From a virus (taxonomy: Duplodnaviria > Heunggongvirae > Uroviricota > Caudoviricetes), in IMG/VR virus record IMGVR_UViG_3300031998_000029, positions 15,666 through 79,665 of that record: 64,000 bases of DNA. The stretch is one strand, 5' to 3'. The notes below the pieces were generated by a model. The model had not been told where the DNA came from and did no database searches. It saw only the letters and a list, made by a program, of their open reading frames with translations. The translations under genes were made by a program, and so were the position numbers. This document shows positions 5,012-26,699 of this stretch, one piece after another (the stretch's first letter is position 1; the number at the start of each line of letters is the position of its first letter).

Positions 5012-5094
5012 TGTATATAAGAAAAACGCGAGACCGCTGAAAGGATGAAATTTGAGAAGAATAAAATCAACTTTTCATAACGGATGGTGTAGAT

Positions 5095-5481: not shown

Positions 5482-5498
5482 TAAGGAGAATATTTATA

Positions 5499-5762: not shown

Positions 5763-5791
5763 AACCAATATTCGATAAGAGGTTTAGAAGG

Positions 5792-6103: not shown

Positions 6104-6130
6104 AACCTTGATTTGATAAAAGGAGAACTG

Positions 6131-6679: not shown

Positions 6680-6680
6680 T

Positions 6681-7073: not shown

Positions 7074-7098
7074 AACTCCAGATTGACGAGGTGAACAA

Positions 7099-7299
7099 AT
7101 GAAATATTGCGTAACGATTGTGAGAACTGGTTGTGTGTTCGTAAAAGCTAATAGCCCCGAAGAAGCAATGGATATTGCAGACCATCAAATAACTGATACT
7201 GTGAATTGGTCAGATGATTGGAATCCGACAGCCGCAGATGCCATAGAAGATGACATCTTTCCGGATTGTACATTCGTAAGCGAAAAGGCGTTTGAATAA
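7099..7299 (+). CDS. hypothetical small protein
   Basis: ORF track; RBS gaggtg. Confidence 0.45.
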   Translation: MKYCVTIVRTGCVFVKANSPEEAMDIADHQITDTVNWSDDWNPTAADAIEDDIFPDCTFVSEKAFE

Positions 7300-7326
7300 A
7301 ACAGTTTTTGATAAGAAGAGGCAATA

Positions 7327-7515
7327 ATGGATTTTCCAAATATGACTAAAGAAGAACTTTCTAAACAATTATATCAAGAGGTTTCATACTATAATGAGGA
7401 TTTAATGGGCTTATGCCAGATACTTGTAAAACAAGTCCCTCGGAAATATATATATAGAATAATTAGCAAAATGTATAGAGTGAGAAAGACTACTACTGAT
7501 AAAACCGGGATTTAA
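7327..7515 (+). CDS. hypothetical small protein
   Basis: ORF track. Confidence 0.45.
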   Translation: MDFPNMTKEELSKQLYQEVSYYNEDLMGLCQILVKQVPRKYIYRIISKMYRVRKTTTDKTGI

Positions 7516-7526
7516 CGAGGTGTTAA

Positions 7527-7868
7527 ATGAGAACAGGTAATATTCAAGCTAGCTTTACAATGAGTGTACCATATGATAACCCAGATAAAAATGGTGTGTC
7601 ATATAGTTATGAAGCTATCCAGAATGCGCTTTCTTCTGTGATAGTCCCATTACCAATTATAGTTTGTCCTAATAATGGAGATTCAATGATAATTGGAAAT
7701 ACAACTTGTAAGCCATATGCAATTCAGCATAATAAAAAAGAAAACATCATCGAATTCACGGTGGATGGTGTCATATATTTCGGAGGCACGGAATGCTTCG
7801 TGAATGAGATAGACGGTAATAAGACTATTACCGATTTTGAGATTGCAAATTTTGGCTTTTCAGAATAA
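7527..7868 (+). CDS. hypothetical protein
   Basis: ORF track; RBS gaggtg. Confidence 0.5.
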   Translation: MRTGNIQASFTMSVPYDNPDKNGVSYSYEAIQNALSSVIVPLPIIVCPNNGDSMIIGNTTCKPYAIQHNKKENIIEFTVDGVIYFGGTECFVNEIDGNKTITDFEIANFGFSE

Positions 7869-7951
7869 AAACCAATATCTGGCATATGAGAGATATGGGT
7901 GGTGTAAACCAACCGTCTCTTATATAAACAATACATATCAACTATCTAATA

Positions 7952-8137
7952 ATGCAGGAGGATAATATGACTTATGAGGTCTTAATGAGAATCTCGGCAG
8001 CCTACCGCAAAGTCGTCGATGCGGAAAACGAAGAAGAAGCAAAAGATATTGCGTGGGACGAAGGGGACTTTGGCGAAGCGTTTGACATTGACGGAGAGTT
8101 TGTTTCTTGTGTGCCAGTCACGGATACCGAGGTGTAA
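7952..8137 (+). CDS. hypothetical acidic small protein
   Basis: ORF track; RBS caggagga; alternative start ATG 7967. Confidence 0.4.
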   Translation: MQEDNMTYEVLMRISAAYRKVVDAENEEEAKDIAWDEGDFGEAFDIDGEFVSCVPVTDTEV

Positions 8138-8146
8138 TGATAGGTA

Positions 8147-8386
8147 ATGAGCGATAAACATATCAACAAGAAACTCTTTTTAAAAGACCTGAAATGGGTT
8201 CTCCGTCCATGTGTGGGGAGCAACTACGCAGATTGTATTGCGTCTGACGAAGATTTCTTTAACGATGTGATTCGGGATGTGGAAGAGACGAGCGCATGGG
8301 AAGACGAAGGCTGTTATAACGAAGATGATGTCCGTCTCGCGGTAGGCCGGGTTTTAATAGAACGATTAAACATAGCTTACTATTAA
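8147..8386 (+). CDS. hypothetical small protein
   Basis: ORF track. Confidence 0.45.
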   Translation: MSDKHINKKLFLKDLKWVLRPCVGSNYADCIASDEDFFNDVIRDVEETSAWEDEGCYNEDDVRLAVGRVLIERLNIAYY

Positions 8387-8396
8387 GGAGCTGCAT

Positions 8397-8789
8397 ATGA
8401 ACACAAGAATAGATTATTTGTACCGTGACGCAAGCAACTATAAAGCCTATAATTCCGTAGTGTTATCCGGGAAGATGTCCGCAGAAGACGCAGAGCGCAT
8501 TAGTAAGTGCTTGTGCGACGGTACATACTTTATACCGAGAGATGTCGGACTTCCCGAAATTCGAGTCTGCGGCTATCGTACCGATGACGACCACTGCTGG
8601 TTCGAGTGGGAAATAGGCGTCGACAAATATACCGGAGAAGCATTCGGATTTGAGCTTACCGAAGATAAGCCCACGGTGGGCATAAGAGTTTCTGAGCTTG
8701 TAAAAAACTTTGAAAGTGTAAAGAAATGGAACGAGACAAGCTGGATGGAAGACTACGAATATAAGTCATACGACCAGTTTTGTGAGTAA
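8397..8789 (+). CDS. hypothetical protein
   Basis: ORF track; RBS aaggag. Confidence 0.55.
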   Translation: MNTRIDYLYRDASNYKAYNSVVLSGKMSAEDAERISKCLCDGTYFIPRDVGLPEIRVCGYRTDDDHCWFEWEIGVDKYTGEAFGFELTEDKPTVGIRVSELVKNFESVKKWNETSWMEDYEYKSYDQFCE

Positions 8790-8853
8790 GCAATACAATA
8801 AAAGCGACGCAATATTTAAATGGGTGACGTGATAACAAAAAAGGATAAAGGCA

Positions 8854-9090
8854 ATGATTGAGATTGGAATGGTTTATACATTTGACACTCATGGCGGAGA
8901 TTCTACATGGAATGATAGAAGCGGAGAAAATGCGTTGTTGTTCGTCCGCTTACGGAAGATGAAGCAGATCTTTTTGATGTTGGTCAGATGTATCGCATCA
9001 GGTTTAGTGATGGCGTTGAAACGGATGCTTTTGAGGATGAACTTTCGTAAATTAGACAAACTTTCATTGGATGTTTTAAAGGAGTTATGA
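8854..9090 (+). CDS. hypothetical protein
   Basis: ORF track; composition atypical, could be non-coding. Confidence 0.3.
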   Translation: MIEIGMVYTFDTHGGDSTWNDRSGENALLFVRLRKMKQIFLMLVRCIASGLVMALKRMLLRMNFRKLDKLSLDVLKEL

Positions 9091-9091
9091 A

Positions 9092-9268
9092 ATGTATTCA
9101 GAAACAGATATAATTAAAAGTTTGAAAATTGCAAGCAGAGAAATCACGGATGACTGTTCTTGGAGCGGAGCGATTATATTGGCTGAAATAATTCTTGATA
9201 AGTCAGAAGATTCTATTATGGAAATGATCGATGATTTAAAAATAAAATTTGCAGAGGATGATAAATAA
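9092..9268 (+). CDS. hypothetical small protein (58 aa)
   Basis: ATG 9092 after aaaggag; below ORF-track cutoff. Confidence 0.4.
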   Translation: MYSETDIIKSLKIASREITDDCSWSGAIILAEIILDKSEDSIMEMIDDLKIKFAEDDK

Positions 9269-9744
9269 TGCCTACACCCGACTTTGTAAAAGCAAAACTC
9301 GACAAAGTGTACACGGACTCCGTACTGAGAAAAGAAATGTCGCCGAGCTCATGGGCTGGCGACGTCTCGTATATGCCGGTTGTCAGAATGAAAATGACAT
9401 GCGGAGGCGGGATGGGAGGATCTCAATGGTACGAATATATACAACGAGAATCGTTTTTCTCGGCCTGTTCTTTTGTTATAACAGCGGGCGGGAACTCATT
9501 TTCCCACCATCCGACGCTTGTTTCTGCGGCAGGAGACCACGGCATCATTCACGTCAAAACATGGGATAACAAAGATATCATTCTGAATACGGCTTATATG
9601 GTCAAAGCGGATTATTTTACGATAGCAACCGCAAATCTGTACAGCCAAAATCATAATTTTCCAATCGGAGTCTATGCTTTCAGCTATCTGATTCCGGACG
9701 GGCATACATTGACACTGTCTAACGAATGCAGACCGGTGATATAA
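9268..9744 (+). CDS. hypothetical protein
   Basis: ORF track, 158 aa, start overlaps previous stop (ATAATG). Confidence 0.55.
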   Translation: MPTPDFVKAKLDKVYTDSVLRKEMSPSSWAGDVSYMPVVRMKMTCGGGMGGSQWYEYIQRESFFSACSFVITAGGNSFSHHPTLVSAAGDHGIIHVKTWDNKDIILNTAYMVKADYFTIATANLYSQNHNFPIGVYAFSYLIPDGHTLTLSNECRPVI

Positions 9745-9941
9745 AACACATGAAAGAAATCAGGCTTAAATGGGACGATCTTAGCCCCACGGAAAAAGAA
9801 ATTGCAGTTAATAACTACAGAAGTATAAGAACGGTTGAAGAAGAAGCGGAGTGCAGCGAAGAGCGTGCGAGAAACGATACCCCATTTTGCAGGGGTTTTT
9901 ATAAGAACATGACGACCGGAGAGATTACGGTCGATATCTGA
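9726..9941 (+). CDS. hypothetical small protein
   Basis: ORF track; alternative start ATG 9750. Confidence 0.4.
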   Translation: MQTGDIKHMKEIRLKWDDLSPTEKEIAVNNYRSIRTVEEEAECSEERARNDTPFCRGFYKNMTTGEITVDI

Positions 9942-9972
9942 CTTAAGATCGATTATAAAGGAGAGGATATAT

Positions 9973-10224
9973 GTGTATGCAGTAGTGTTTACATACAGTT
10001 TTGACCACGACGTCGCTGTTTACCTTTACAAGACACAGGACGAAGCCGTACAGCATCTGGAAGATTATCTAAAAGAGAGATTCGCGCATGAAGCTACAGA
10101 CCAAAAGACCCACTACGGCATATCATTTGATATAAGCGAAGACGGTCTTTACGGTACATATAAGCAGCATTTTTTAGATCACATCGAAACTACCACGGTT
10201 AGGGTCGGGACGGTATACGATTAA
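9973..10224 (+). CDS. hypothetical protein
   Basis: GTG start after aaggagagga. Confidence 0.5.
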   Translation: MYAVVFTYSFDHDVAVYLYKTQDEAVQHLEDYLKERFAHEATDQKTHYGISFDISEDGLYGTYKQHFLDHIETTTVRVGTVYD

Positions 10225-10253
10225 CTCATGGAAACACAAAAGGAGTAATTAAT

Positions 10254-10823
10254 ATGGAGTTTATATTAAATTTATTGTTTGCAGCTTTGTGTGGAGCTAT
10301 GGTGGGGTTAGTATTCGGCACAGTTTTCTTTGTATATAGTCATCGACCAGCAAAAGATGAATTCGAAAATAACGACAGTAAATCACAAAGCGGCATTTTA
10401 GTAGATATCATGAGAGACGGAAAAAGAAGATTCGTTCCGTTTTACGATATCAAGTCCGGAGATTTCATAGCCTATCTGGGAGTGTTCGCGGGTGATGACG
10501 CGCATCAGAGCGGAGATGCATCATATGACGGATGGCTATTTTATGACAGTAACGGACTCAGTGTGTTTCCCGAAGATCTTGACGGAGACGTCCGCGACGA
10601 CAGAGAAGATAAATGGTTTGGGATAGTCCGGTGGTGTAACGAAGATATAGCATGTAAGATGGTATGCATGGGAATCACCCCTACAAAGAAAAGCATATTA
10701 GAGGTCAGGGATTTTTGCGAAAAGAATAAATCTTTCAATGATACAATGTGCAAAGCCGGTTGGGATATGATCGAAACGGCGATACGGGAATGCGATAAGG
10801 AGCGGAAATATGGAAGATTCTAA
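10254..10823 (+). CDS. membrane protein (N-terminal TM helix)
   Basis: MEFILNLLFAALCGAMVGLVFGTVFFVY; RBS aaggag. Confidence 0.6.
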   Translation: MEFILNLLFAALCGAMVGLVFGTVFFVYSHRPAKDEFENNDSKSQSGILVDIMRDGKRRFVPFYDIKSGDFIAYLGVFAGDDAHQSGDASYDGWLFYDSNGLSVFPEDLDGDVRDDREDKWFGIVRWCNEDIACKMVCMGITPTKKSILEVRDFCEKNKSFNDTMCKAGWDMIETAIRECDKERKYGRF

Positions 10824-10977
10824 TAATAATGTTGAAATAAACGTGTTTGATGTAGAGGAAATACATAATAACTGTACCGTTCAGATTCTCAAGAACAGCG
10901 TGACCGGAGAAACAAGCGTCGGATGGTGGGAAAATGAGTTCCCGCCCGCTGTTATAACAAAAGAACAGGCCGACTAA
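10809..10977 (+). CDS. hypothetical small protein (56 aa)
   Basis: ATG overlapping previous stop; fills gap. Confidence 0.35.
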
Positions 10978-10986
10978 GGAGGATAT

Positions 10987-11538
10987 ATGGGTTACTATGT
11001 GAACGCAGACGGGTTTATAACATTAAAGGAAGGCAAGTACGATAAGGAAATGCTCCTGGCTGTAAGAAATAAACTTAATAAAGCATTTGATGAATATGAC
11101 TGTGGCTCTAACGACGATATCCCTTACTATTCTTTCGGACTGTGCGGAAATTATTATGCAGACGAAGTGTGTAAAACGCTTGATGATGTAGCCGACATGG
11201 TCGGCAATTATATAACTGACGGGGAAGTACAGTTTTCCGGCGAAGATAGGGAATATTGGCGATTCGTATTTAAGAACGGTATGTGGATAGAGGAGCCGGG
11301 ACATGTCGTATATAACGAGGACGACCTTGCGACTCAATCCGACGTGGTTATAGAAGTATGCCCGCATTGCAGCAACGAGGTTGAGATGCGCTGGAATACA
11401 AAAGTTTCCGGGCTCAGAGCCTTTTGCCCCTTCTGCGGAAATAGGCTCATGCTGTGCAGCGAGTGCGACGGGATGATTGTCGGATGCGACTACGACTCCG
11501 ACTCCGATACCTGTAAATTTAGCAGACCCACATACTAA
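10987..11538 (+). CDS. hypothetical protein with C-terminal Zn-ribbon cluster
   Basis: RBS aaggagg; CPHCSNE...CPFCGNRLMLCSECDG. Confidence 0.6.
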   Translation: MGYYVNADGFITLKEGKYDKEMLLAVRNKLNKAFDEYDCGSNDDIPYYSFGLCGNYYADEVCKTLDDVADMVGNYITDGEVQFSGEDREYWRFVFKNGMWIEEPGHVVYNEDDLATQSDVVIEVCPHCSNEVEMRWNTKVSGLRAFCPFCGNRLMLCSECDGMIVGCDYDSDSDTCKFSRPTY

Positions 11539-11679
11539 ATAAATTAACCCGTCCATTGGGTATTGACAACAACGACGGGGTTACAATGTTTCTTTATAAA
11601 AGTCAAGTTCCGAAGCTATTAAAGGGATTCTTTTATACCGATATATAAAAAACACGAAAAAACAGAATGCCGCAGACCC

Positions 11680-11712
11680 ATTGGCGCTCAATGGGTCTGG
11701 GCTATTTTGATG
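11680..11712 (+). terminator. putative hairpin terminator / regulatory stem (cagacccattg-gcgct-caatgggtctg + ggctatttt)
   Basis: 11 bp perfect stem followed by T-rich tract; part of a motif repeated at 20444. Confidence 0.35.
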
Positions 11713-11795
11713 AGATGCTATAGTGTATGGTATTTCAGATAACGCAAAAAAACAGTTGTCTGTTATTTTATTCCAAAAAGAAAGGTGGTGCGACG

Positions 11796-11990
11796 ATGAT
11801 AAAGTCGGAACAGTTTCTCCTCATCATGAACGATTCGCTCGGTGCTGCTGCGGTCGGCGGAGCATTGGAGAACCTGATGCCAAACGCCGGTTTTATTGAC
11901 GACGTAAAGAGGCATATGGACGCCCGCAGAAAGTCTGCGTGCCGCAGAAACAGAGCATTTGCCGGACAAAAAGCACCGGCTCAGGCTTAA
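11796..11990 (+). CDS. hypothetical small protein
   Basis: ATG 11796 after aaaggtggtg; listed ORF 11727..11990 extended. Confidence 0.45.
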   Translation: MIKSEQFLLIMNDSLGAAAVGGALENLMPNAGFIDDVKRHMDARRKSACRRNRAFAGQKAPAQA

Positions 11991-12092
11991 ACACAACAAA
12001 CTGGTTTTCCTTTTAAGAAGCGCCCCGAAACCCATTGGGGCGCAGGGGATCGGGAGATTGTTTACAACCGCAAAGGTTGTAAACGGTTATAT

Positions 12093-12168
12093 CTGAACGT
12101 GGTGCAGTGGGTAGCACTCCTGATTTGGGATCAGGAAGTCGCAGGTTCAAATCCTGCCGTTCAGACCA
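12093..12168 (+). tRNA. tRNA-Pro (anticodon TGG)
   Basis: Cloverleaf by eye: acceptor ctgaacg/cgttcag, D gtgc/gcac, AC stem cctga/tcagg loop tttggga, T gcagg-ttcaaat-cctgc, encoded CCA. Confidence 0.85.
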
Positions 12169-12290
12169 CGGGCGAAGCGGTTACGCACTCTGCCCGGTCA
12201 TGGTCTCCTTTCTCTCCATAGCTCCTCCCGCCGCCGGACTTCCCGCGTGCGGGAGGGGCGCACTTATTTTCTATAAAGATAAAATTTATT

Positions 12291-12530
12291 ACCTACGATG
12301 CAGATTGATTGTTCAGATCACAACAATCGCTCTCCGCTGTCAGCGAGAGCAACAAGATGACACGGATTCGCCCTTGCCCTTCACCTCCGCGTCACTGCCG
12401 GGACGCAGGACGACCCGGCAGGGCGCGAGAGGAGAAGGCTCATACCGGCATAATCAGCGAAAACTCCATTATGGATCGTGGGACAATAAAAGTTCATACT
12501 CGGGCGGCTCGCAAGTCCCCGGGTTTTCAT
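12291..12530 (+). ncRNA. Structured ncRNA-like element copy C (homolog of 1027-1330)
   Basis: acctacgatgcagattgattgt...caatcgctctccgctgtcagcgagagcaacaagatgacacggattcgcc; long imperfect hairpin at the position of copy B's long hairpin but with different sequence (structural covariation); conserved ccggcataa[hairpin]ttatggatcgtgggacaa. Confidence 0.45.
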
Positions 12531-12605
12531 GCTGGCGTGGCTCAAAGGCAGAGCAACGCACTTGTAATGCGTAGGTTGTGGGTTCGATTCCCTCCGCCAG
12601 CTCCA
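12531..12605 (+). tRNA. tRNA-Thr (anticodon TGT)
   Basis: acceptor gctggcg/cgccagc, D gctc/gagc, AC acgca-cttgtaa-tgcgt, T-loop ttcgatt (one T-stem mismatch), CCA encoded. Confidence 0.75.
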
Positions 12606-12694
12606 TTGGCGCGGCGTAAAGGTTGGTTGCCGAGGCGAATATTTATAGCCAAAACTGTGGGAGACTGTTATTCCTGCCAAGTCGCGCCTTATTT

Positions 12695-12770
12695 GCCGAC
12701 ATAGCTCAGCAGGCAGAGCAGGCGCTTCGTAAGCGCAAGATTGCAGGTTCGATTCCTGCTGTCGGCTCCA
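12695..12770 (+). tRNA. tRNA-Thr (anticodon CGT)
   Basis: acceptor gccgaca/tgtcggc, D gctc/gagc, AC ggcgc-ttcgtaa-gcgca, T gcagg-ttcgatt-cctgc, CCA encoded. Confidence 0.8.
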
Positions 12771-12817
12771 ATTTTCAAACACACAGAAACACAAATAAAT
12801 CAGAAAGGAGAATTACA

Positions 12818-13009
12818 ATGGCTTACAGAATTGTACAAAAAGAATTTAACCCAAACACAGGCAAAAACCTCGTCGAAATCGTACTGGACAGCGATTCAGA
12901 TCTTTCGGAAGTCGGTACTGATTATTCCCCGGGCAGCATCGCGGTAGTGGCAGACTCCGGAGCTCCGTCATATATGCTGAATGCTTCAGAAGAATGGAAG
13001 GAGTTATAA
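12818..13009 (+). CDS. hypothetical small protein
   Basis: ATG 12818 after aaaggag; listed ORF 12623..13009 runs through the tRNA. Confidence 0.55.
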   Translation: MAYRIVQKEFNPNTGKNLVEIVLDSDSDLSEVGTDYSPGSIAVVADSGAPSYMLNASEEWKEL

Positions 13010-13010
13010 A

Positions 13011-13430
13011 ATGAGCGTTTTACGAGATATAGTCCGCGCAAAAATATTCGCGTCGGGCGGCGGGGGAGGCGGAAACGCCGTGCTTTCCGGCACGTTTATA
13101 GCGACTCAAAATACCGCATCGCACATAATCGAAGAGCTGATCGGATCGACTGTAACTCATTTTTTGATAACGGCCATGCCGTCACCCAGCGCAACAATCC
13201 AGTCTTCGGCACGTGCTTTCAGCGCCGGGTTTATCAACATGGAGGATACCATGAGCTTCTCTATTGGAACGAGTTCAAGCGGAACATCGGTTGCAGCCAT
13301 TAGAATAAAAGACACCGAGGATGAAAGCTTTTCGTTAGACAAGACGACGGGAGTTTTTAAGGTTGCCACGGGAACCGCCGGACTCGGGTATATTCTTGCC
13401 GGAATAACATATAAGTGGTTTGCTTGGTGA
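13011..13430 (+). CDS. hypothetical Gly/Ser/Thr-rich protein
   Basis: ATG 13011 after ggaaggag; GGGGGG tract. Confidence 0.55.
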   Translation: MSVLRDIVRAKIFASGGGGGGNAVLSGTFIATQNTASHIIEELIGSTVTHFLITAMPSPSATIQSSARAFSAGFINMEDTMSFSIGTSSSGTSVAAIRIKDTEDESFSLDKTTGVFKVATGTAGLGYILAGITYKWFAW

Positions 13431-13440
13431 GGTGGTGTAT

Positions 13441-13695
13441 ATGAGATATTATAAGACCGTTGAAAATGGATATATTACGTCTGTGGGAACAGGTCTCAGC
13501 GGGGAAGAAATCAGTATAACAGAATATAATAACCTGCTTTCCGTGATCGGCAATCGTCCACAGGACACATACGATACATGGTATCGCCTGCGTGAAGACC
13601 TTACATGGGAGTCGTATTCGGCTCCTGCGGCAGACCCCGATCCGGAAATAGACGCTTCAGAAGCGTTCGAGATTATTTTCGGAGGTGCTGAATGA
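13441..13695 (+). CDS. hypothetical protein
   Basis: ATG 13441 after gaggtgg. Confidence 0.5.
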   Translation: MRYYKTVENGYITSVGTGLSGEEISITEYNNLLSVIGNRPQDTYDTWYRLREDLTWESYSAPAADPDPEIDASEAFEIIFGGAE

Positions 13696-14114
13696 GATAC
13701 AGCCATGCTATAAAAATAAGAGATGTGATGCACAAGGCATCCGAATCTCTTTCCGATAACGATGCTTATGAAGCCATGGAGCTTATCGAAGACTGGAAGT
13801 CCGGCATTGAATACCCCGGCGAAAAACGATTAAGATACGGAAATGATCTGTATAAAACAAAGAGCGCACACCGTTCGCAGTCGGATTGGACTCCGGATAT
13901 CGCTACGTCGCTCTACGAAAAAATACCGGAACCGGGTCAGGGAGACAGCCCGAGCAGCCCAATTGCCTACAACGGCAACATGGCGCTCGAAAACGGAAAA
14001 TATTATTCTCAGTTTGAGATAACATATCTGTGTATCCGTGATACCGTAAATCCCGTATATAACAACCTCGCAGACCTTGTAGGTTTGTATGTAGAGGTAG
14101 TAAACCAAAACTAA
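13692..14114 (+). CDS. hypothetical protein
   Basis: ORF track; ATGA overlap with upstream gene. Confidence 0.55.
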   Translation: MRYSHAIKIRDVMHKASESLSDNDAYEAMELIEDWKSGIEYPGEKRLRYGNDLYKTKSAHRSQSDWTPDIATSLYEKIPEPGQGDSPSSPIAYNGNMALENGKYYSQFEITYLCIRDTVNPVYNNLADLVGLYVEVVNQN

Positions 14115-14171: not shown

Positions 14172-15275
14172 ATGGAAAGGAATGTCACAGTGCGAAAATT
14201 AGCAAGTATAAAGACGATCTCGGACATACTTCCGATTGAGGGCAAAGACAGGATCGTCCTGGCGCTCGTAGACGGATGGAGCGTCATTGTTAAGAAGGAC
14301 GAGTTTCAGGTCGGTGACAAGTGCGTTTATGTAGAAATAGATTCCGTAATGCCGGAGAAAGAAGAGTTCGAGTTTCTCAGGAAGGTAAACTTCAGAATTA
14401 AAACCATGAAGATGTCCGGGGTTTTATCGCAGGGTATCTGCTTCCCGTTAAGCATTCTTCCGAAGAAAGAGGACGGAGAATATGAGACAGAGGAAGATGT
14501 CACCGAAATACTCGGTATAAAGCAATATGAAAAGACGATGGATACAGAACCGCAGACAGCTCCGTGCAAGAAGGTTTCAAACAAGTATCCGCACTGGTTA
14601 ATGAGAATGGCATGGTTCAGAAAGCTGGTTCTTCCGAAGAAAAAGGCACGCGGCTTTCCGTCTTTCGTGTCCAAGACCGATGAAAGCAGGATCCAGAACA
14701 TGCCGTTCATCTTAAAAGATAAAAGAAAGTGGATTGCAACAGAAAAGATAGACGGACAAAGCGGTACTTTCTGCCTGGTCAGACATAAGTCCCGTCTGCC
14801 TTTTATAAAGGATAAGTTTGAGTACATAGTATGCTCCCGTAATTACAGAACCGACGACAAAAGCACGTCTTACTGGAAGGTATCTGACAGATATAACATC
14901 AGGGACGTTCTGGAAAAGCTGATCGGCGATAACGACTGGGTTGTGATTCAGGGCGAATGCATCGCTCCCAACGTCCAGGGCAACAAATACAAGGTCAAAG
15001 AGGCAGATCTGTATGTGTTCAATCTTATCTACCCGGACGGCAGAGTGGGATCACTTACCGCCAAGTATGCCTGTGAAGCTTTCGGTCTGAAATTTGTTCC
15101 GATAATTGAAACGGGATATATACTGCCGGATACCGTTAATGAAGTCCTTGAATATGCTCACGGACAGAGCATGATCGGAGACACCATAAGAGAGGGAATC
15201 GTGTTCAGAAGCATGGACGGCAGGCTGAGTTTCAAGGCGGTCGATCCGATTTTCCTTATGAAGTATGACGAATAA
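14172..15275 (+). CDS. ATP-dependent RNA ligase-like protein (Rnl5/DraRnl-like: N-terminal OB/tRNA-binding-like domain + nucleotidyltransferase domain)
   Basis: KxDG lysine-adenylylation motif in WIATEKIDGQSGTF; N-terminus VRKLASIKTISDILPIEGKDRIVLALVDGWSVIVKKDEFQVGDKCVYVEIDSVMP resembles OB/tRNA-binding domains. Confidence 0.6.
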   Translation: MERNVTVRKLASIKTISDILPIEGKDRIVLALVDGWSVIVKKDEFQVGDKCVYVEIDSVMPEKEEFEFLRKVNFRIKTMKMSGVLSQGICFPLSILPKKEDGEYETEEDVTEILGIKQYEKTMDTEPQTAPCKKVSNKYPHWLMRMAWFRKLVLPKKKARGFPSFVSKTDESRIQNMPFILKDKRKWIATEKIDGQSGTFCLVRHKSRLPFIKDKFEYIVCSRNYRTDDKSTSYWKVSDRYNIRDVLEKLIGDNDWVVIQGECIAPNVQGNKYKVKEADLYVFNLIYPDGRVGSLTAKYACEAFGLKFVPIIETGYILPDTVNEVLEYAHGQSMIGDTIREGIVFRSMDGRLSFKAVDPIFLMKYDE

Positions 15276-15906
15276 CGACAGTTCTATAAGCGTAAGAATT
15301 TTCGGGGTTCCGGAGAGGATGGATTGTATAAAAAAGAATCAGAAAATTCTCTCCGTTTCCGACGACCACATATTCATCGACTATGACCACGACGGCGTGA
15401 TTCCCACAGCGAAGCGTACGTGGTCAAAAGAAACGGACAAAGAGTTTACGATGGTTTTACAGGACGATATCGACCTTTGCGACAATTTTCTCAGCTATTG
15501 CAACAGGATAGTGAGAGCTCATCCTAATGAAATCATCGCTCTTTTTCCGGTTCAGTTTGTCCGACGTGTCCCGGAGAGCAGACTGCCGAAAAAGTCTCCA
15601 TATATTTCTACAAATACCTTGTCCGGATGCGGTGTCATTATGAGAACCGAATATGTTTCACCATGTTTGAATCGATGGACGGACGACAACGCTCTCGGAG
15701 ACGACACAAACATACAGAGATGGGCAAGAGAAAACAGCGTGGGCGTTCTCACCACAATACCTTCTCTCATTCAGCATATAGGAGATGTTTCGGTATTTCT
15801 GCCGGGGAGAGTTATCGGCAGAACAAAGTATTTTGAAAAAGACCCGAAGAATGTCGATTGGGATAATGGGTACGTCACACCGTGGACAAATATTATTGAA
15901 GATTGA
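15265..15906 (+). CDS. putative GT-A-like glycosyltransferase (DxD motif); function uncertain
   Basis: Solid 213 aa ORF; LQDDIDLCDNF DxD-like motif; no P-loop. Confidence 0.35.
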   Translation: MTNNDSSISVRIFGVPERMDCIKKNQKILSVSDDHIFIDYDHDGVIPTAKRTWSKETDKEFTMVLQDDIDLCDNFLSYCNRIVRAHPNEIIALFPVQFVRRVPESRLPKKSPYISTNTLSGCGVIMRTEYVSPCLNRWTDDNALGDDTNIQRWARENSVGVLTTIPSLIQHIGDVSVFLPGRVIGRTKYFEKDPKNVDWDNGYVTPWTNIIED

Positions 15907-15920
15907 GAGTGATTGAGTAT

Positions 15921-16373
15921 ATGAACAACCTGTGTTCGAAGTGCGGCAAGACAACGGCGAGGATCTATCCGGATCATACATGCCAGGGCTGCTATAATTA
16001 CTTCCATCAGGGCGGCACAGAGAATGAGCTGCCGAATAAAGGAGAGATAGTACGCGACAACCGTGGTTATGTGGTTTGTCACATATGCGGACGAGCCTAC
16101 AAACGTCTTGGTTCCCATGTCCGAGAGAGCCATGGCATGACTACGGCGGAGTACAAACAGGAATTTGGGCTCTGCAATAATGCAAAGACGACAGAGCCTG
16201 AGTATTCTCAGCATATGAGGGACTTGGCTTACGAAAACGGAATGCCGGAAAGACTGATCCGGTCTGGATACGCAACTCGCATTCGGAAGGGTGAACGCTA
16301 TAAAAGGCTTGGCAAGAAATCTCGTCTTCAGGAGTGCTTAGACCGCTCAAAAAGATATAAAAAGACGAAATAA
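15921..16373 (+). CDS. Ros/MucR-family C2H2 zinc-finger DNA-binding protein with N-terminal Zn ribbon
   Basis: CHICGRAYKRLGSHVRESHGMTTAEYKQEFGL matches the Ros/MucR signature CxxC...H...H.MTPxEYRxKWGL; N-terminal CSKCGK...CQGC. Confidence 0.6.
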   Translation: MNNLCSKCGKTTARIYPDHTCQGCYNYFHQGGTENELPNKGEIVRDNRGYVVCHICGRAYKRLGSHVRESHGMTTAEYKQEFGLCNNAKTTEPEYSQHMRDLAYENGMPERLIRSGYATRIRKGERYKRLGKKSRLQECLDRSKRYKKTK

Positions 16374-16397
16374 ATGTGAATAAAATTCGGGTTTTAT

Positions 16398-16466
16398 AAA
16401 ACGGTGGCGGAATAGGCAGACGCTTACGCCGTTAGGTTATGCGTGGTGCAAATACACGCCCGTTAA
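16398..16466 (+). ncRNA. tRNA-like element E1 (class-II-type D-arm TGGCGGAATAGGCAGACGC + T-arm-like gcgtg-gtgcaaata-cacgc + short acceptor-like stem; no anticodon arm)
   Basis: D-arm matches tRNA positions 8-26; paralog of element at 32492; lies in the 5' leader of the phosphoesterase gene. Confidence 0.35.
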
Positions 16467-16480
16467 AAAGGAGAGATAAT

Positions 16481-17236
16481 ATGATTTTCGTAACAGGCGA
16501 TTGTCACGCAGACTTCAGACGATTCTCCAAAGAGAATTTTCCTGAACAAAAAGAAATGACCAGAGACGACACGGTGATCGTGTGCGGGGATTTCGGTCTG
16601 TGGCATGATGCGCCCGGCGAGCAATGGTGGTTCAGATGGATAGAGGAAAAGCCGTTTACGCTGGTTTTTGCAGACGGCAACCATGAGAACTTCGACAGGC
16701 TGTACTCAAATGAATTCCCGGTGGTTGATTTTCACGGAGGAAAAGCTCACAAGATTCGAGAAAATCTATATCATCTGATGAGAGGATATATATTTGACTT
16801 CGAAGGCAAATCATTCTTTGTCTTCGGAGGAGCTCAGAGCCACGATATACAGGACGGAATCTTAGACAGAAGTGATTTTGAATCAGACGAAAGTTTCTTA
16901 AATACCGTTAAATCCTGGAATGAAAAAGGGAAATATTTCCGCATCAATCATATTTCGTGGTGGAAGCAGGAACTTCCCACACAGGACGAAATGGACTTCG
17001 GAATCAGCACTCTTAAGCAGCACGGCAATAAAGTTGACTTTGTAATATCCCACTGCTGTCCGCAGGAAATAGCGTCGATGAACGGGTATCACACCCCGGA
17101 CATACTGACTTCTTACTTCGATGGTATTGCAAGGCAGATCAAATTCGATAAGTGGTTTTTTGGGCACTATCATAATAACAACACAACATATTCAAAGTTC
17201 GTAATGCTGTACGAAAACATCGAAAGAATCTTATAA
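16481..17236 (+). CDS. calcineurin-like metallophosphoesterase
   Basis: ATG 16481 after aaaaggagag; motifs GDCHAD, GDFGLW, GNHE. Confidence 0.8.
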   Translation: MIFVTGDCHADFRRFSKENFPEQKEMTRDDTVIVCGDFGLWHDAPGEQWWFRWIEEKPFTLVFADGNHENFDRLYSNEFPVVDFHGGKAHKIRENLYHLMRGYIFDFEGKSFFVFGGAQSHDIQDGILDRSDFESDESFLNTVKSWNEKGKYFRINHISWWKQELPTQDEMDFGISTLKQHGNKVDFVISHCCPQEIASMNGYHTPDILTSYFDGIARQIKFDKWFFGHYHNNNTTYSKFVMLYENIERIL

Positions 17237-19033: not shown

Positions 19034-19139
19034 AAATCAAATGGAGTTTTTGTGAAACTTATAGACAAGATTTGTTAAGCGCGGTTTGGGAGTGCATAAC
19101 CACATACATGGAAATGTAAGTCAAAAAGGGGGTCAAAGG

Positions 19140-19598
19140 ATGTTACATATAATCGAGGGTGATATTTTACTTTCAGATGCAGCGGCAATTTGTCATCAGG
19201 TTAATTGTCAAAACGTGATGGGTTCTGGCGTTGCTAAAGAACTCTATATAAAATGGCCGGAGGTCAAACAAAGGTATCATGAGTTCTGCAAAGGCAAAAA
19301 TCCGTATGATTTACTTGGCAAAGTTCAAGTCGTTGAACTTGACGAGTTCCCGGCCGGCAACAAGGTTGTTATAAACATCTTCGGGCAGCTTAATTTTGGA
19401 CGTCAGAAAGTTTGTTATACCGACTATAGCGCCCTTGATGAAGCATTCCAGAACCTTAACCGCCTCTGTGCCACTAAAAAAATAGCACTTCCCTACGGAT
19501 TCGGATGCGGTCTTGCCGGTGGAAATTGGAAGACAGTTGAGCGAATAATGCTAAAGCGCCTTTGGCTGCCCGAAGTATACATATATATGAAAGAGTAG
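19140..19598 (+). CDS. Macro domain protein (ADP-ribose binding / ADP-ribosyl hydrolase-like)
   Basis: ATG 19140 after aaagggggtcaaagg; MLHIIEGDILLSDAAAICHQVNCQNVMGSGVAKEL matches the macro-domain N-terminal signature. Confidence 0.7.
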   Translation: MLHIIEGDILLSDAAAICHQVNCQNVMGSGVAKELYIKWPEVKQRYHEFCKGKNPYDLLGKVQVVELDEFPAGNKVVINIFGQLNFGRQKVCYTDYSALDEAFQNLNRLCATKKIALPYGFGCGLAGGNWKTVERIMLKRLWLPEVYIYMKE

Positions 19599-20443: not shown

Positions 20444-20486
20444 TCAATGGGTTTAAGCTAGTTTGATGAAAAACTATAGTGTACAT
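20444..20486 (+). promoter_or_regulatory. Conserved promoter-like motif (second copy of GCTCAATGGGTYT..TTTGATGA..CTATAGTGTA)
   Basis: Near-identical ~45 nt motif at 11689-11727 upstream of ORF 11796; here upstream of the iscS-like gene; TATAGT -10-like hexamer. Confidence 0.45.
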
Positions 20487-20499
20487 TTCTTTGGTGGTG

Positions 20500-21666
20500 A
20501 TGAAAATGATTTATTTAGATAACGCGGCAACGACCCAAATAGACCCGGAGGTTTTGGACGCTATGATGCCGTACCTGACCGACCAATACGGAAACGCGGG
20601 TACGCTGTACGAACTCGGCAGAAATGCTAAATCGGCAATAGACCGTGCGAGAGCGCAGGTCGCGGAGTTTGTCGGCGCCGCACCCGAACAGATAATCTTT
20701 ACTTCCGGCGGAACGGAAGCAAATAACATGGTGTTCTTTTCTCTGCGTGACTTTTTGAAAAAATCCAAAAAGACTCACATAATCTCGGCATACAACGAAC
20801 ACGACTCTGTTTTCGGAGCTGTGAGGGCGCTGTGCATGAAAGAAGATTTTTATTCTACTCTTTTACTTCCTGACTCACGAGGAGTAATCGACCCTGCGAA
20901 CCTACATAAATCCATACTCGACGACACCGGGCTTGTCTCAATAATGTATATGAACAATGAGACAGGCTCTGAAAACGACGTGTCTGAGATATCAAGGATT
21001 TGTTCGCAGAAAGATATACTATTCCATACGGACTGTGTACAGGCTGCGGGTAGCTGTGTGCTTAATGCAAAGGAAATCGGCTGTGATTTTATGTCTGTTT
21101 CTTCTCATAAAATACACGGCCCGAAGGGTGTGGGAGCTTTGTTTGTAAAGGACGCAAAGTATATCGCTCCAATGATATATGGCGGATCGGTTCAGGAATT
21201 TGGATTAAGGGGCGGAACCGAAAACGTTGCAGGAATAGTCGGATTTGGTAAGGCGTGTGAGCTCATGTCCAAACAGATCCACGAGATTGACATCCATAAC
21301 TCGGTGCTGAAGCAGCTTTTCTACTCAAATCTAAAGAACGAGCTTTCTGAGTACGGACTGGAGGACATACTGCACATCAACGGGGACACAGTGGTCAAGC
21401 ATGGGAAAACGATTAATGTCAGGTTTGACGATGTGGACGGAGAAACTCTGCTGGTGTTCCTTGACGCAAGGGGTGTCTGCGTTTCTTCGGGTTCTGCATG
21501 CAACAGCCATGAGTCCACTCCCAGTAGAGTGCTTTTATCTATGGGTATAGACCCGGAAGATGCCAGGAACTCAATCAGGGTATCGTTTTCAAAGTTCAAT
21601 ACAGAACACGAAGTGATGGAGGCTGCGGAAGTGGTCGCTTTGTGCGTAAGGATGCTGCATATATGA
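20500..21666 (+). CDS. iscS: cysteine desulfurase (NifS/IscS family, PLP-dependent class V aminotransferase)
   Basis: IYLDNAATTQ...FTSGGTEANN...SVSSHKIHGPKGVGALFV PLP-lysine motif. Confidence 0.85.
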   Translation: MKMIYLDNAATTQIDPEVLDAMMPYLTDQYGNAGTLYELGRNAKSAIDRARAQVAEFVGAAPEQIIFTSGGTEANNMVFFSLRDFLKKSKKTHIISAYNEHDSVFGAVRALCMKEDFYSTLLLPDSRGVIDPANLHKSILDDTGLVSIMYMNNETGSENDVSEISRICSQKDILFHTDCVQAAGSCVLNAKEIGCDFMSVSSHKIHGPKGVGALFVKDAKYIAPMIYGGSVQEFGLRGGTENVAGIVGFGKACELMSKQIHEIDIHNSVLKQLFYSNLKNELSEYGLEDILHINGDTVVKHGKTINVRFDDVDGETLLVFLDARGVCVSSGSACNSHESTPSRVLLSMGIDPEDARNSIRVSFSKFNTEHEVMEAAEVVALCVRMLHI

Positions 21667-23641: not shown

Positions 23642-24439
23642 TTATTCGCCACAGACGAAGTAGTCCGGGGTAGATATTTTCTTCTCTAATATTACCCTGC
23701 CTAGACACCTGACAGATATATTACTATCTGCTCCGATGTATACATTCGTTTCTTTAAGCAAAGGGTTAGACGAAATCAAGGAAAGGTTTCTTGACGAGTC
23801 GATATAGTATTGCTTGCAATACATTGCTCCGTCGACATCAAATATTCCAACGTCCCCGATATTCATCGGGGCATTTTTCTCGACATACACGATATCTCCG
23901 TCGGATATATACGGAAGCATGCTGTCGCCCTGAATTCTTACGGCAAAATTCGCAGTTTCCGGGATACCGTTGTCGAAGGGGATCATTTCGAACTCATCGT
24001 TTTCCAAAGGAAAAGACGCGCCGGCAGCAGACGGTGTAGAATAGAGTGGTATGTATCTGCGAGTATCAGACTTTTTCCCTTTCGTCGAAGTCTTAAAGTC
24101 ACCCCTCTTTTTTTCAAGAGAGCAGACGGAGCTCACAATTTGTTTGCCCAACCTGTCCAGCAGTCTGTAGTCAAATAATAGTCTCAGTTCGTCTGTTGTT
24201 AATGACAGTTCGTCAAATCCATTGTTCTCTATGCCAAGAATATCGTCAACAGATACACCAAATACATGAGACAATGAGACCAGAGCGTCCAAAGACGGTT
24301 TCTTGGCGGCGGATTCCCAGTTTCTTATCGTAACAACAGACACACCGACCTTTCGACTGAGCTCATGCTGTGTCATTGAGGCGCGTTCTCTTAACATCCT
24401 GATTCTGTTACTCAACGTCATTTTGTTATTATCTCCCAA
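23642..24439 (-). CDS. CI/LexA-like phage repressor (XRE-family HTH + S24 peptidase domain)
   Basis: HTH QHELSRKVGVSVVTIRNWES; C-terminal GDSMLPYISDGDIVYVE with Ser and downstream YCKQYY Lys dyad. Confidence 0.85.
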   Translation of the reverse strand: MGDNNKMTLSNRIRMLRERASMTQHELSRKVGVSVVTIRNWESAAKKPSLDALVSLSHVFGVSVDDILGIENNGFDELSLTTDELRLLFDYRLLDRLGKQIVSSVCSLEKKRGDFKTSTKGKKSDTRRYIPLYSTPSAAGASFPLENDEFEMIPFDNGIPETANFAVRIQGDSMLPYISDGDIVYVEKNAPMNIGDVGIFDVDGAMYCKQYYIDSSRNLSLISSNPLLKETNVYIGADSNISVRCLGRVILEKKISTPDYFVCGE

Positions 24440-24725
24440 TAATTTATGATTGATTCTGCATTGACAAAATGATATGTATTATGTTATAGTTAGATAACAA
24501 AAGTTTCTGTAACAAACATTAACATAAACTGTTGTTTATGTCAAGAGTTACCATTAATTATAAGGAGGTTCATAAAATAAAAAAAAGACCGGGGCACATT
24601 TCTGCACCCCGGAGAGAGGAAAAGAGTTGTATTACTACAACCCCGGGGTTTATGTACACACACCCAAAACATAAACCCTATTGTAGTATAACATACTCTC
24701 CGTAAAAAATCAACGGAGGTATAAT
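24440..24725. promoter_or_regulatory. Lysogeny switch region: divergent promoters and operator-like inverted repeats
   Basis: ttgacaaaatgatatgtattatgttatagt (-35 TTGACA, 17 nt, -10-like), gttat...ataac half-sites, acaaaca...tgtttat inverted repeat, ccccgggg palindromes, between the repressor (-) and rightward operon (+). Confidence 0.6.
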
Positions 24726-25136: not shown

Positions 25137-25568
25137 TTGGACAGCAATTGCAGACACCCGAAAATAGGAGAAATCTATCTTATGCGCTTCGGCGGAAGCG
25201 GCAGCGAGCAGAGCGGATTGAGACCCGGGCTTGTTTTCCAGAACAATACGGGAAATCTCCACAGTCCGAACATAATTGCGCTGCCGCTGACAAGCGCCAT
25301 CAAAAAGACAGAGCAGCCTACCCATGTACTCATACCGTCCGACGAAACCGGGCTTCTTAAAGACAGCATTGTTCTCTGTGAAAACCCGGAAAGAATGTCT
25401 AAGGATAAGATCGGCGCTTACATAACGACGATCCCGGATAAGTATATGGGCGATGTCGCCGCAGCCAGTATAATTGCGTCTTCTGCAATTTCTTTCTTAG
25501 ATCAGGAGACACTTATAGACTTATGGCGCAAAGCGGTTTCTCTCAACGCAGTTCGAAAAACTGCGTGA
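25137..25568 (+). CDS. MazF/PemK-family toxin-like protein (CcdB/MazF fold)
   Basis: TTG start after ggaagga and a TGtTATAAT extended -10; KIGEIYLMRFGGSGSEQSGLRPGLVFQNN...IIALPLTSAIKK...VLIP matches the MazF/PemK N-terminal pattern. Confidence 0.55.
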   Translation: MDSNCRHPKIGEIYLMRFGGSGSEQSGLRPGLVFQNNTGNLHSPNIIALPLTSAIKKTEQPTHVLIPSDETGLLKDSIVLCENPERMSKDKIGAYITTIPDKYMGDVAAASIIASSAISFLDQETLIDLWRKAVSLNAVRKTA

Positions 25569-25591
25569 TACATATAAAAAGGAGGGCTGTT

Positions 25592-26539
25592 ATGTATAAT
25601 GCTGTTTTAAAAGAGGAGTTTATAAAAACCCAAACAAGTGTCTCCGTAAGAACCGCATATAAACATCTGTTTGAAGCCATAGAGAAATTTGAAAGAGAGT
25701 GGGGCGCAGATATCTGCACAAGAACGCCGGAGGAACTCAGACCGGTAATGGATGATATATTGGGTGTGACCAGATACGGCAACAGAATGAGAACCGGTCT
25801 CTTAAAAAAGTACGCTTTATGGTGTATGGAAAACAATGTCCCCGGGGCTTGCAAGGGCGTTTTTGAAGTCGATCTGTCAAACGTAAGTAAGATGCGGACA
25901 CAGACCGTTAAAAACCCCGCACACCTGCAAGCTTATCTTAACGTCCTGTTTGGCCCGGAAAAAGACGAAGGAACAGACAACGCATTAAGATGCTTTTTCT
26001 GGCTTGCCTACGGAGGATTGCTTGAAGAAGATGCCATCAAGGTAACAGCAAAAGATGTAGACCTTGTGAATATGGTGTTTAGATTCAACGGTGAAGAGTA
26101 TCCCATATACAGAGAGGCGGTACCGTGTTTTAGGAACTGTGCGACGTTGACTCAGTTTGCTTTAAAATACCGTAACGGAACCGTATATAAAGACAGATGC
26201 CTCGGAGACAGTTTGTTAAGGCGTACCTCCTTTCCAGATAAGGATATAGTAGGAATAAGATCTCAGGTTTCAAAAGCAGTCACTACAGCATATAAGTCCG
26301 GCAAAACCGATATATGTCTGAGCTACTTTAAGGCGTGGCTGTCCGGAGTGTTTTATCGGACATACATTGCCGAGAGTATGGGCATAGCTCCGGACTTTAC
26401 AAACCCGGTCGCAAAACTGATGCAGAACATATCATACTCTCTGGATAACACAAGGGCGTCCATTAGCTCGTACCGAAATTATAAGGCAAAATGGTACTTA
26501 AACGATTATGAACAATGGAAAACAACGCTGATAGTATAA
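25592..26539 (+). CDS. hypothetical protein; degenerate tyrosine-recombinase-like fold (box I Arg replaced)
   Basis: NALRCFFWLAYGGLLEEDAIKVTAKDVDL resembles integrase box I but TG-R is GG-L; no HxxR box II. Confidence 0.3.
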   Translation: MYNAVLKEEFIKTQTSVSVRTAYKHLFEAIEKFEREWGADICTRTPEELRPVMDDILGVTRYGNRMRTGLLKKYALWCMENNVPGACKGVFEVDLSNVSKMRTQTVKNPAHLQAYLNVLFGPEKDEGTDNALRCFFWLAYGGLLEEDAIKVTAKDVDLVNMVFRFNGEEYPIYREAVPCFRNCATLTQFALKYRNGTVYKDRCLGDSLLRRTSFPDKDIVGIRSQVSKAVTTAYKSGKTDICLSYFKAWLSGVFYRTYIAESMGIAPDFTNPVAKLMQNISYSLDNTRASISSYRNYKAKWYLNDYEQWKTTLIV

Positions 26540-26624: not shown

Positions 26625-26699
26625 CGGGATGTCGCCAAGCGGTAAGGCACGGGATTTTGGCTCCCGCATTCGTCGGTTCGAACCCGACCATCCCAGCCA
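26625..26699 (+). tRNA. tRNA-Gln (anticodon TTG) with C1:A72 mismatch
   Basis: Close to Firmicutes tRNA-Gln: D gcc-aagcggtaa-ggc, AC cggga-ttttggc-tcccg, T gtcgg-ttcgaac-ccgac, acceptor cgggatg/catccca, G73, CCA encoded; preceded by tataat. Confidence 0.75.

Follow-up and report, generated by a model that had tools for sequence, protein, structure and literature searches.

A stand-alone Gln-type phage macrodomain as a candidate counter-defence ADP-ribosyl hydrolase

We analysed a macrodomain gene in a 64,000-nucleotide stretch of the viral record IMGVR_UViG_3300031998_000029 (positions 15,666 to 79,665; below, "the window" means this whole stretch, and positions are counted from its first letter). 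The gene (19140..19598, + strand) encodes 152 amino acids plus a stop codon, and we are firm that this open reading frame (ORF) is genuine and intact and that its product is a stand-alone macrodomain whose active site, of the Gln type as in the bacterial proteins SCO6735 and BT1257, is fully conserved. Its catalytic activity, its substrate, and its role in counter-defence we infer. It is very probably an active ADP-ribosyl hydrolase of the ALC1 class, cleaving at C1'', and it probably serves counter-defence of some kind. Our preferred but tentative reading, which falls short of an even chance, is that it removes ADP-ribose from nucleic acids, like SCO6735 and the phage protein AdfM.

Gene, fold, and active site

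The product begins MLHIIEGDILLSDAAAICHQVNCQNVMGSGVAKEL at an ATG start codon, and a Shine-Dalgarno-like AGGGGG (19127..19132, + strand, read from the sequence) lies 7 nt 5' of it. A longer alternative frame, from a TTG at 19086, is not needed. The same 152-residue product was called independently on a metagenomic contig of identical sequence. A consensus scan around the gene turned up no promoter or terminator that could convincingly be assigned to it. An earlier note on this DNA had described a stand-alone macro-domain ORF here, and its coordinates are exact, with Pfam, PHROG, PADLOC, PDB, and AlphaFold2 all in agreement.

The assignment to the macrodomains is far beyond chance. Pfam PF01661 (Macro) matched with 26.1 bits (gathering cutoff 22) over profile positions 2-118 of 118, PHROG 335 matched with E = 1.5e-37, and the PADLOC model for DarG matched with E = 1.7e-17. 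(The label of PHROG 335 is "phosphatase".) An AlphaFold2 model, built with an alignment of 39 homologues, has a mean predicted local distance difference test (pLDDT) score of 94.4 and the three-layer alpha/beta/alpha fold of macrodomains. Foldseek with this model returned 221 PDB matches at E ≤ 1e-3; the top 50 listed are macrodomains or engineered hydrolases on a macrodomain-like fold, and the template-modelling (TM) scores at the top are 0.75-0.81. There is no second domain.

To assign a class, we searched PDB sequences with a profile made from the alignment of 39 diverse homologues. The ranking was headed by BT1257 (1e-23) and SCO6735 (1e-19), followed by the DarG macrodomain of Mycobacterium tuberculosis (6e-18), yeast Poa1p (6e-15), Thermus aquaticus DarG (2.5e-14), TARG1 (4e-11), and the macrodomains of alphavirus nsP3 (about 1e-5). 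MacroD-like viral macrodomains scored 1e-5 or worse, and no chain of MacroD1/2, Af1521, or YmdB was among the PDB matches of the profile at E ≤ 0.01. A search with the single sequence placed M. tuberculosis DarG first (6.7e-11), then BT1257, SCO6735, Poa1p, and T. aquaticus DarG, and Foldseek recovered the same ALC1-class proteins as the profile. Because the profile ranking and the Foldseek set agree, we place the protein, as predicted from its sequence and model, in the ALC1-like class (TARG1/DarG/SCO6735/Poa1p) and not with MacroD/Af1521. The profile and fold rankings also rule out an O-acetyl-ADP-ribose deacetylase of the MacroD/Af1521/YmdB type, and the corresponding NCBIfam model (PRK00431-type) gave 12.6 bits against a cutoff of 246.

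A true DarG antitoxin was likewise ruled out. The macrodomain of DarG was the top single-sequence PDB match and the top Foldseek match (M. tuberculosis 5M3I; T. aquaticus 5M31/5M3E), and the window protein shares its fold and its N22-type Asn. However, DarG has a catalytic Lys (PTKK/PTKD) and an LGxxNGGLD loop, both missing from the window protein. It also has a C-terminal DarT-binding domain (the full-length protein has about 330-400 residues) and an adjacent darT gene. The 152-residue protein lacks that domain, and no neighbour has a Pfam match to DarT/DUF4433; the neighbours are small proteins without family matches. The NCBIfam equivalog model for DarG gave 54.9 bits, below its cutoff of 250, and covered model positions 2-135 of 338, which is the macro part only. 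The earlier note had left a choice among MacroD, DarG-like, and Af1521-like types: the wider class of DarG is right, and neither MacroD/Af1521 nor DarG proper is (Q83 replaces the Lys, and the DarT-binding domain and darT are missing).

A ryanodine-receptor R12 domain was also considered and rejected, as its PDB match (E about 0.09) falls short of significance and the fold is plainly that of a macrodomain. Phage proteins with a RyR domain that act as cyclic ADP-ribose (cADPR) glycosidases are another family (PMC13232231). The earlier note's further suggestion, that the protein might hydrolyse ADP-ribose-derived signals, is weakened in that the proteins shown to act in this way on cADPR isomers have a RyR domain and are not macrodomains (PMC13232231).

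The active-site signature is complete: H19, N22, G28, G30, Q83, and G122-W130 are invariant or nearly so in the 39 homologues. H19-Q20-V21-N22 (codons at 19194..19205, all on the + strand here) form the HxxN motif of the ADP-ribose site in the homologue alignment. N22 is invariant; H19 and N22 correspond to H24 and N27 of SCO6735, and N22 to N22 of DarG (PMC9411070, PMC13309987). G28-S29-G30 (19221..19229) lie in the first phosphate-binding loop (MGSGVAK), and both glycines are invariant. Q83 (19386..19388), the invariant Gln of an F-G-Q motif, occupies the aligned position of the catalytic Lys in TARG1 (K84) and DarG (K80) and matches Q85 of SCO6735, which is essential there (PMC9411070). Finally, G122-C-G-L-A-G-G-N-W130 (19503..19529) is the second diphosphate-binding loop, whose form GCGLAGGxW is common to SCO6735, BT1257, and the Adpp proteins of Vibrio phages Luma and Gary.

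Relatives of known function

Relatives of the protein are widespread in phages. A tblastn search located them in 1303 of the 50,697 phage genomes deposited; none reaches 60% identity, and the closest is that of Geobacillus virus E3 (44%). They include T4-like, FelixO1-like, PAK_P1-like, and SPbeta-like phages and many Vibrio phages, and they are annotated as "phosphatase", as "macro domain protein", or as hypothetical. At the nucleotide level, megablast found no similarity to deposited phages. Several of these relatives, or of their bacterial counterparts, have been studied experimentally.

The best matches of the profile in the PDB, SCO6735 of Streptomyces coelicolor (5E3B) and BT1257 of Bacteroides thetaiotaomicron (2FG1/2AFC), are 27-29% identical to the window protein (SCO6735, 29%). 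They share its size, its stand-alone build, the Gln in place of the catalytic Lys, the HxxN motif, and the GCGLAGGxW loop. They differ in loop 1 (WGKG, as against MGSG in the window protein) and in being encoded on bacterial chromosomes, while the window gene is phage-borne. SCO6735 has two DNA-positioning lysines, K34 and K89; in the window protein the first site is Ser29, and R88 and K90 lie near the second. In SCO6735, Gln85 is essential (Q85A and Q85E are inactive) and the Lys/Asp dyad of TARG1 is absent; the enzyme strips DNA of the thymine-linked ADP-ribose that DarT makes and shields cells against this toxin (PMC9411070). It also removes uracil-linked ADP-ribose from RNA (PMC13036486), and it is inactive on ADP-ribose linked to the 5'-phosphate of RNA (PMC11833690).

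Among phage proteins, T4 Tk.4 has been studied by a transposon screen, in which tk.4 (since named adfM) was the only T4 gene that proved necessary on a DarTG2 host; a clean tk.4 knockout makes T4 sensitive to DarTG2 (preprint 10.1101/2025.11.20.689424). We located tk.4 in T4; over 139 aligned residues, its product and the window protein are 29% identical (E = 1e-10, 43.1 bits). Both are stand-alone phage macrodomains of about 155 residues and of the Gln type (YTQ in Tk.4), with no linkage to NARP1, the NAD+ pathway discussed below. They differ in the second loop (GAGIGKGNW in Tk.4, GCGLAGGNW in the window protein), and T4 belongs to another phage group with hosts of another phylum. Also, the neighbours of tk.4 are vs, regB, and tk, whereas those of the window gene are RNA-repair genes and a NifS-like gene. 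A second AdfM, PhiKZ gp104, removes the ADP-ribose placed by DarT2 on DNA and protects chimalliviruses (PMC13309987). It shares the fold and the N22-type Asn with the window protein but is of the Lys type, with the same Lys and loop motifs as DarG (34% identity); its similarity to the window protein is marginal.

A different role has been shown for Adpp of Vibrio phage Gary, a Macro protein encoded between Adps and Namat. Adpp converts ADP-ribose-1''-phosphate (ADPR-1P), which the RES-domain defence aRES produces, to ADP-ribose, from which NARP1 then rebuilds NAD+ (preprint 10.64898/2026.01.28.702374). Vibrio phage Luma gp177 is 98.7% identical to Gary Adpp and has the same three-gene arrangement. 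It is 31% identical to the window protein (E = 3e-14, 52.8 bits), with the same GQ (FGQ/YGQ) and GCGLAGGDW motifs. Gary Adpp and the window protein also share the PHROG-type "phosphatase" annotation. The difference is in their context, as we found no genes like Adps and Namat in the window. Yeast Poa1p, an ADP-ribose 1''-phosphate phosphatase, is of the same class and among the top structural matches (Foldseek TM score 0.81), but it lacks both the GQ motif and the GCGLAGG loop (it has FGGSSHG and NSGI(F)GVPW) and has a long insertion.

The chemistry that these enzymes share would be displacement of a substituent at C1'' of the distal ribose, which seems a reasonable extension to the window protein. 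We also considered a variant loop, GC(H)RGG, as a marker of role and rejected it. It is not diagnostic because only part of the macrodomains in NAD operons have it and the validated Adpp does not.

Gene neighbourhoods in the family and in the window

We surveyed the neighbourhoods of macro genes by fetching 80 IMG/VR loci and 80 genome loci with relatives; in total, 174 loci (numbered with L below) were analysed. ORFs within 3.5 kb of the macro gene were clustered, the most recurrent clusters were annotated with Pfam, and the loci were collapsed to 117 groups at 80% macro identity. A NAMPT-like phosphoribosyltransferase (21 of 117 groups) and the NAD synthase NadE (19 groups) were found near the macro gene and mostly abutted it. 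A Prs-like phosphoribosyl-pyrophosphokinase was present in 15 groups, an isochorismatase/PncA-like protein in 11, a NifS-like desulfurase in 10, and a metallophosphoesterase and an ATP-dependent DNA ligase in 9 each. At least one NAD-salvage gene was within 3.5 kb in 25 groups (21%), and the typical NAD operon runs PncA - Prs-like - NAMPT-like - macro - NadE. The survey is thus independent confirmation, and an extension, of the published NARP1-Macro association, in which a Macro gene is present in 15% of NARP1 operons and the conversion of ADPR-1P to ADP-ribose has been shown (Osterman et al.).

The fuller form of this operon has five to six genes and occurs in phages and prophages of Bacillota: a PncA-like isochorismatase, the Prs-like and NAMPT-like genes, macro, NadE, and sometimes NADAR (L060, L077, L079, L145, L147, L171, L123, and L124, with the macro gene at about 6001-8450 of each locus). 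It has more genes than the three of the published NARP1-AP (Adps-Adpp-Namat), and its PncA and NadE genes hint at a deamidated (nicotinate) route to NAD+. The ATP-dependent DNA ligase gene is a direct neighbour of macro in its nine groups, six of which also have NAD-salvage genes (L058, L070, L082, L084, L135, L139, and others); a phage ligase that uses ATP would bypass the NAD+-dependent ligase of the host under a defence that depletes NAD+. A RelA/SpoT-like "GTP pyrophosphokinase" gene is within about 3 kb of macro in seven groups (loci L011, L138, L141, L150, L110, and L115 among them). In one of these loci, from Bacillus phage FADO (L011, 2446-5471), a NADAR (COG3236) gene is two genes upstream of macro. 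We considered NADAR adjacency as a sign of an anti-DarT island, but the signal is ambiguous because two of the five groups with NADAR lie in NAD operons.

The window's own clade looks different, with NAD genes within 3.5 kb of macro in none of its nine groups. In the window, the accessory block that holds the macro gene lies upstream of the repressor and replication module. It begins with an RNA ligase (PHA02142 OB domain plus RNA_ligase, by Pfam and PHROG 968; 14172..15275, + strand) and continues with a glucosyltransferase-like gene, a Ros/MucR-like gene, and a metallophosphoesterase (PHROG 1649; 16439..17236, + strand). Several small zinc-ribbon or unknown proteins follow, then macro, three small genes, and a NifS/IscS-like cysteine desulfurase (Aminotran_5, E = 2e-81; 20479..21666, + strand; its PHROG, 12787, is labelled "unknown function"). 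The closest relatives (L002, L004, and L019, with 64-66% macro identity) share the order metallophosphoesterase ... macro ... NifS ... repressor. In these three loci, genes for a Thg1-like protein, RlaP, and a CCA-adding/HD enzyme are immediately 5' of macro on the same strand, and in L004 the macro gene and the gene for the CCA enzyme overlap by 16 nt. L099 has NifS, RlaP, and CCA genes around macro in a changed order, and Thg1 or RlaP genes abut unrelated macro genes in L101, L087, L063, and L089. Overall, Thg1, RlaP, or CCA genes flank macro in 8 of 117 groups (four of the window's clade and four unrelated), and this 7% co-occurrence is not clearly above chance, as accessory genes of large phages cluster for other reasons too. 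RlaP and Thg1-like proteins are tRNA end-repair enzymes (PMC12776372; PMC2904730).

The RNA-repair toolkit varies between close relatives. The window has its set at 14172-17236 (+ strand): the OB-domain RNA ligase, the glucosyltransferase-like and Ros/MucR-like genes, and the metallophosphoesterase. In L002 (3343-6674) and L004 (3809-7016), genes for the Thg1-like, RlaP, and CCA-adding/HD enzymes are an insertion that separates the phosphoesterase from macro. The NifS-like gene is syntenic with macro throughout the clade; four of its ten groups have tRNA-repair genes and three have NadE. NifS-like desulfurases are sulfur donors for tRNA thiolation, and in a phage either tRNA thiolation or Fe-S supply is possible. 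The window has five tRNA genes, Leu-CAG (1362-1433), Pro-UGG (12093-12168), Thr-UGU (12531-12605), Thr-CGU (12695-12770), and Gln-UUG (26625-26699), and three of them are clustered about 7 kb upstream of macro.

Two negative results from the window bear on the role of the protein. Homologues of Adps/Prs, Namat/NAMPT, NadE, and PncA are absent from all 64 kb, as judged by tblastn with all such neighbour proteins of the 174 loci, and Pfam agrees. Also, Tpt1/KptA or an ADP-ribosyltransferase had no Pfam match in 10987-47600 or in the ten largest ORFs of 1-14000, a scan that did not cover the small ORFs or the minus-strand block.

The rest of the window bears out the earlier note's description of the gene as phage-encoded. 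A long + strand block of small genes and the tRNAs are accompanied by a minus-strand block of large genes, and the replication and metabolism genes are ERF, PDDEXK, DnaB, DnaG, a PolIII-alpha-type polymerase, NrdD/G, ThyX, and a large serine recombinase. A CI-like repressor with helix-turn-helix and peptidase S24 domains (23642-24439, minus strand) indicates a lysogeny-type switch, and a strong, near-consensus divergent promoter is beside it (24461-24490). A gene for a PemK-family toxin (25137-25568), with no obvious antitoxin call adjoining, is followed by an MrpR-like recombinase (25523-26539). A Band_7/SPFH protein (31584-32435, + strand) is in the replication module, 12 kb from macro; this family is a close neighbour of macro in seven other groups, usually inside NAD-gene islands. 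At the left edge, the window cuts a reverse transcriptase gene on the + strand (Pfam RVT_1, 384 aa; window 1-470, continuing leftward, with 196-1350 of L180 as its counterpart).

As for the host, an identical macro protein occurs on metagenomic contigs of up to 115 kb. The nearest genome-borne relatives (47-55% identity) are from metagenome-assembled genomes of Oscillospiraceae/Clostridiales and from Flavonifractor, and the next are from many Paenibacillus, Bacillus, and Brevibacillus genomes. A temperate phage of an anaerobic Bacillota host, presumably one of the Oscillospiraceae-like Clostridia, would fit three features of the window: its repressor, its serine recombinase, and its anaerobic ribonucleotide reductase.

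Possible roles of the macrodomain

We tentatively propose that the protein is a nucleic-acid de-ADP-ribosylase. A DarT2-type ADP-ribosyltransferase of the host would place ADP-ribose on thymine (possibly uracil) of single-stranded phage nucleic acid. The macro protein, with Q83 in place of the catalytic Lys, would bind the ADP-ribose, cleave the substituent at C1'' of the distal ribose, and so strip the ADP-ribose off those bases, which would allow phage replication and expression to go on. It would target the lesion and not the toxin protein. We rank this role first because the gene is stand-alone like tk.4, because the NARP1 partners that Adpp needs are absent from the 64 kb of sequence seen, and because the surrounding island repairs nucleic acids (RNA ligase and metallophosphoesterase in the window, Thg1-RlaP-CCA in the relatives). 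The earlier note had proposed that the protein opposes DarT. Homology favours this in part, through the TARG1/DarG/SCO6735 class, the SCO6735 signature, and the similarity to Tk.4; the strict likeness to DarG fell away, and the note had not considered that the equally close Gary Adpp has a different demonstrated role, in NARP1.

Several observations weigh against this proposal. Adpp is as similar to the window protein as Tk.4 or SCO6735 is, and Tk.4 is more similar to the Adpp-type Luma gp177 (35% identity) than either is to the window protein. In a rough neighbour-joining tree Tk.4 and Luma gp177 are sisters, so neither sequence nor this tree separates an AdfM-like from an Adpp-like role. The genes that recur most often beside members of the family serve NAD salvage, not DNA repair. 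At the site where SCO6735 has the DNA-positioning Lys34 (and DarG has a Lys), the window protein has Ser29. The window protein itself is known from its sequence and a model, and the evidence for T4 Tk.4 is genetic only and from a preprint (10.1101/2025.11.20.689424). That the presumed hosts carry DarT2 is an assumption. Finally, the phage genome is about 115 kb, so about 51 kb of it is outside the window and could hold NARP1.

The last point matters for the possibility we rank second, namely that the protein acts like Adpp and converts ADPR-1P from RES-domain NAD+ phosphorylases (such as aRES) to ADP-ribose, from which a phage or host pathway such as NARP1 rebuilds NAD+. We consider this possible but less likely. 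It is placed second because the NAD context of the family is strong, with NAMPT-like and NadE genes usually abutting macro, because many NAD-associated macrodomains are closer to the window protein (36-46% identity) than Tk.4 is, and because NARP1 might lie outside the window. The motifs shared with Luma gp177, the high rank of Poa1p, the "phosphatase" label of PHROG 335, and the three other groups in which a NifS-like neighbour co-occurs with NadE are also in its favour. Against it are the missing NAD genes, both in the window and near macro throughout the clade, and the report that Adpp alone is insufficient and that all three genes are needed (preprint 10.64898/2026.01.28.702374). Third in our ranking is a part in RNA repair: within a phage tRNA-repair island, the protein would de-ADP-ribosylate RNA (for example, at uracil) or clear ADPR-1P/Appr>p from a 2'-phosphotransferase of the Tpt1/KptA type, as Poa1p does in yeast tRNA splicing. 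The position directly after Thg1-RlaP-CCA and the overlap in L004, the rearranged set in L099, and the four unrelated loci fit this, as do the ligase, phosphoesterase, desulfurase, and tRNA genes of the window. Bacterial Thg1-PNK-Macro-RNA ligase operons were noted in 2010 (PMC2904730), and TARG1, like SCO6735, hydrolyses uracil-linked ADP-ribose in RNA (PMC13036486). We nevertheless think this unlikely. No Tpt1/KptA or ADP-ribosyltransferase domain was found in the Pfam-scanned parts of the window; the window itself lacks Thg1, RlaP, and CCA genes; SCO6735 does not act on 5'-phosphate-linked ADP-ribose in RNA; no bacterial defence is known that ADP-ribosylates tRNA uracils; and the gene clustering is open to the reservation given above. 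In a stronger form, which we regard as quite unlikely, the macrodomain would be a working part of a tRNA-repair module (with Rnl and metallophosphoesterase, or Thg1-RlaP-CCA, and the NifS-like protein) that removes ADP-ribose from RNA bases (for example, uracil in tRNA), where it would be installed by an RNA-directed ADP-ribosyltransferase defence that is as yet undescribed.

The protein might also act on proteins or in housekeeping, by removing mono-ADP-ribose left on Asp/Glu by host or phage ADP-ribosyltransferases, or by deacylating sirtuin-made O-acyl-ADP-ribose as TARG1/OARD1 does. TARG1 and SCO6735 both hydrolyse protein-linked ADP-ribose (PMC9411070), and the class name OARD1 reflects O-acyl-ADP-ribose deacylase activity, but the protein-directed mechanism of TARG1 uses a Lys84/Asp125 dyad, both residues of which are missing here. 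With no gene for an ADP-ribosyltransferase or a sirtuin in the Pfam-scanned regions of the window, and no precedent in phages, such a role appears improbable. That the protein is a non-catalytic sponge or reader of ADP-ribose-derived molecules is highly improbable. Macrodomains can be pure readers (the macro domain of ThsA of type II Thoeris binds His-ADPR), and phage sponges for ADP-ribose-derived signals exist; against this, the family keeps the entire active-site signature unchanged, including the Gln that is essential for catalysis in SCO6735, and the tested relatives are enzymes.

As to significance, phage macrodomains were shown to be counter-defence enzymes in 2025-2026 in two ways, AdfM against DarTG2 and Adpp with NARP1 against aRES. 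Such proteins are thus already described, and the window protein has no architectural or catalytic departure from them; it adds a member from a gut phage of the Clostridia type to the family. Annotation pipelines cannot split the AdfM and Adpp roles by sequence, as the similarity between proteins with these roles exceeds that among most members of the family. Should the enzyme accept C1''-linked ADP-ribose promiscuously, one small gene could blunt several defences based on NAD+ or ADP-ribose. The tight link of its clade to tRNA-repair genes is the only feature with some potential for novelty: if the macrodomain does work within a tRNA-repair module, then tRNA de-ADP-ribosylation would be a new branch of phage RNA repair.

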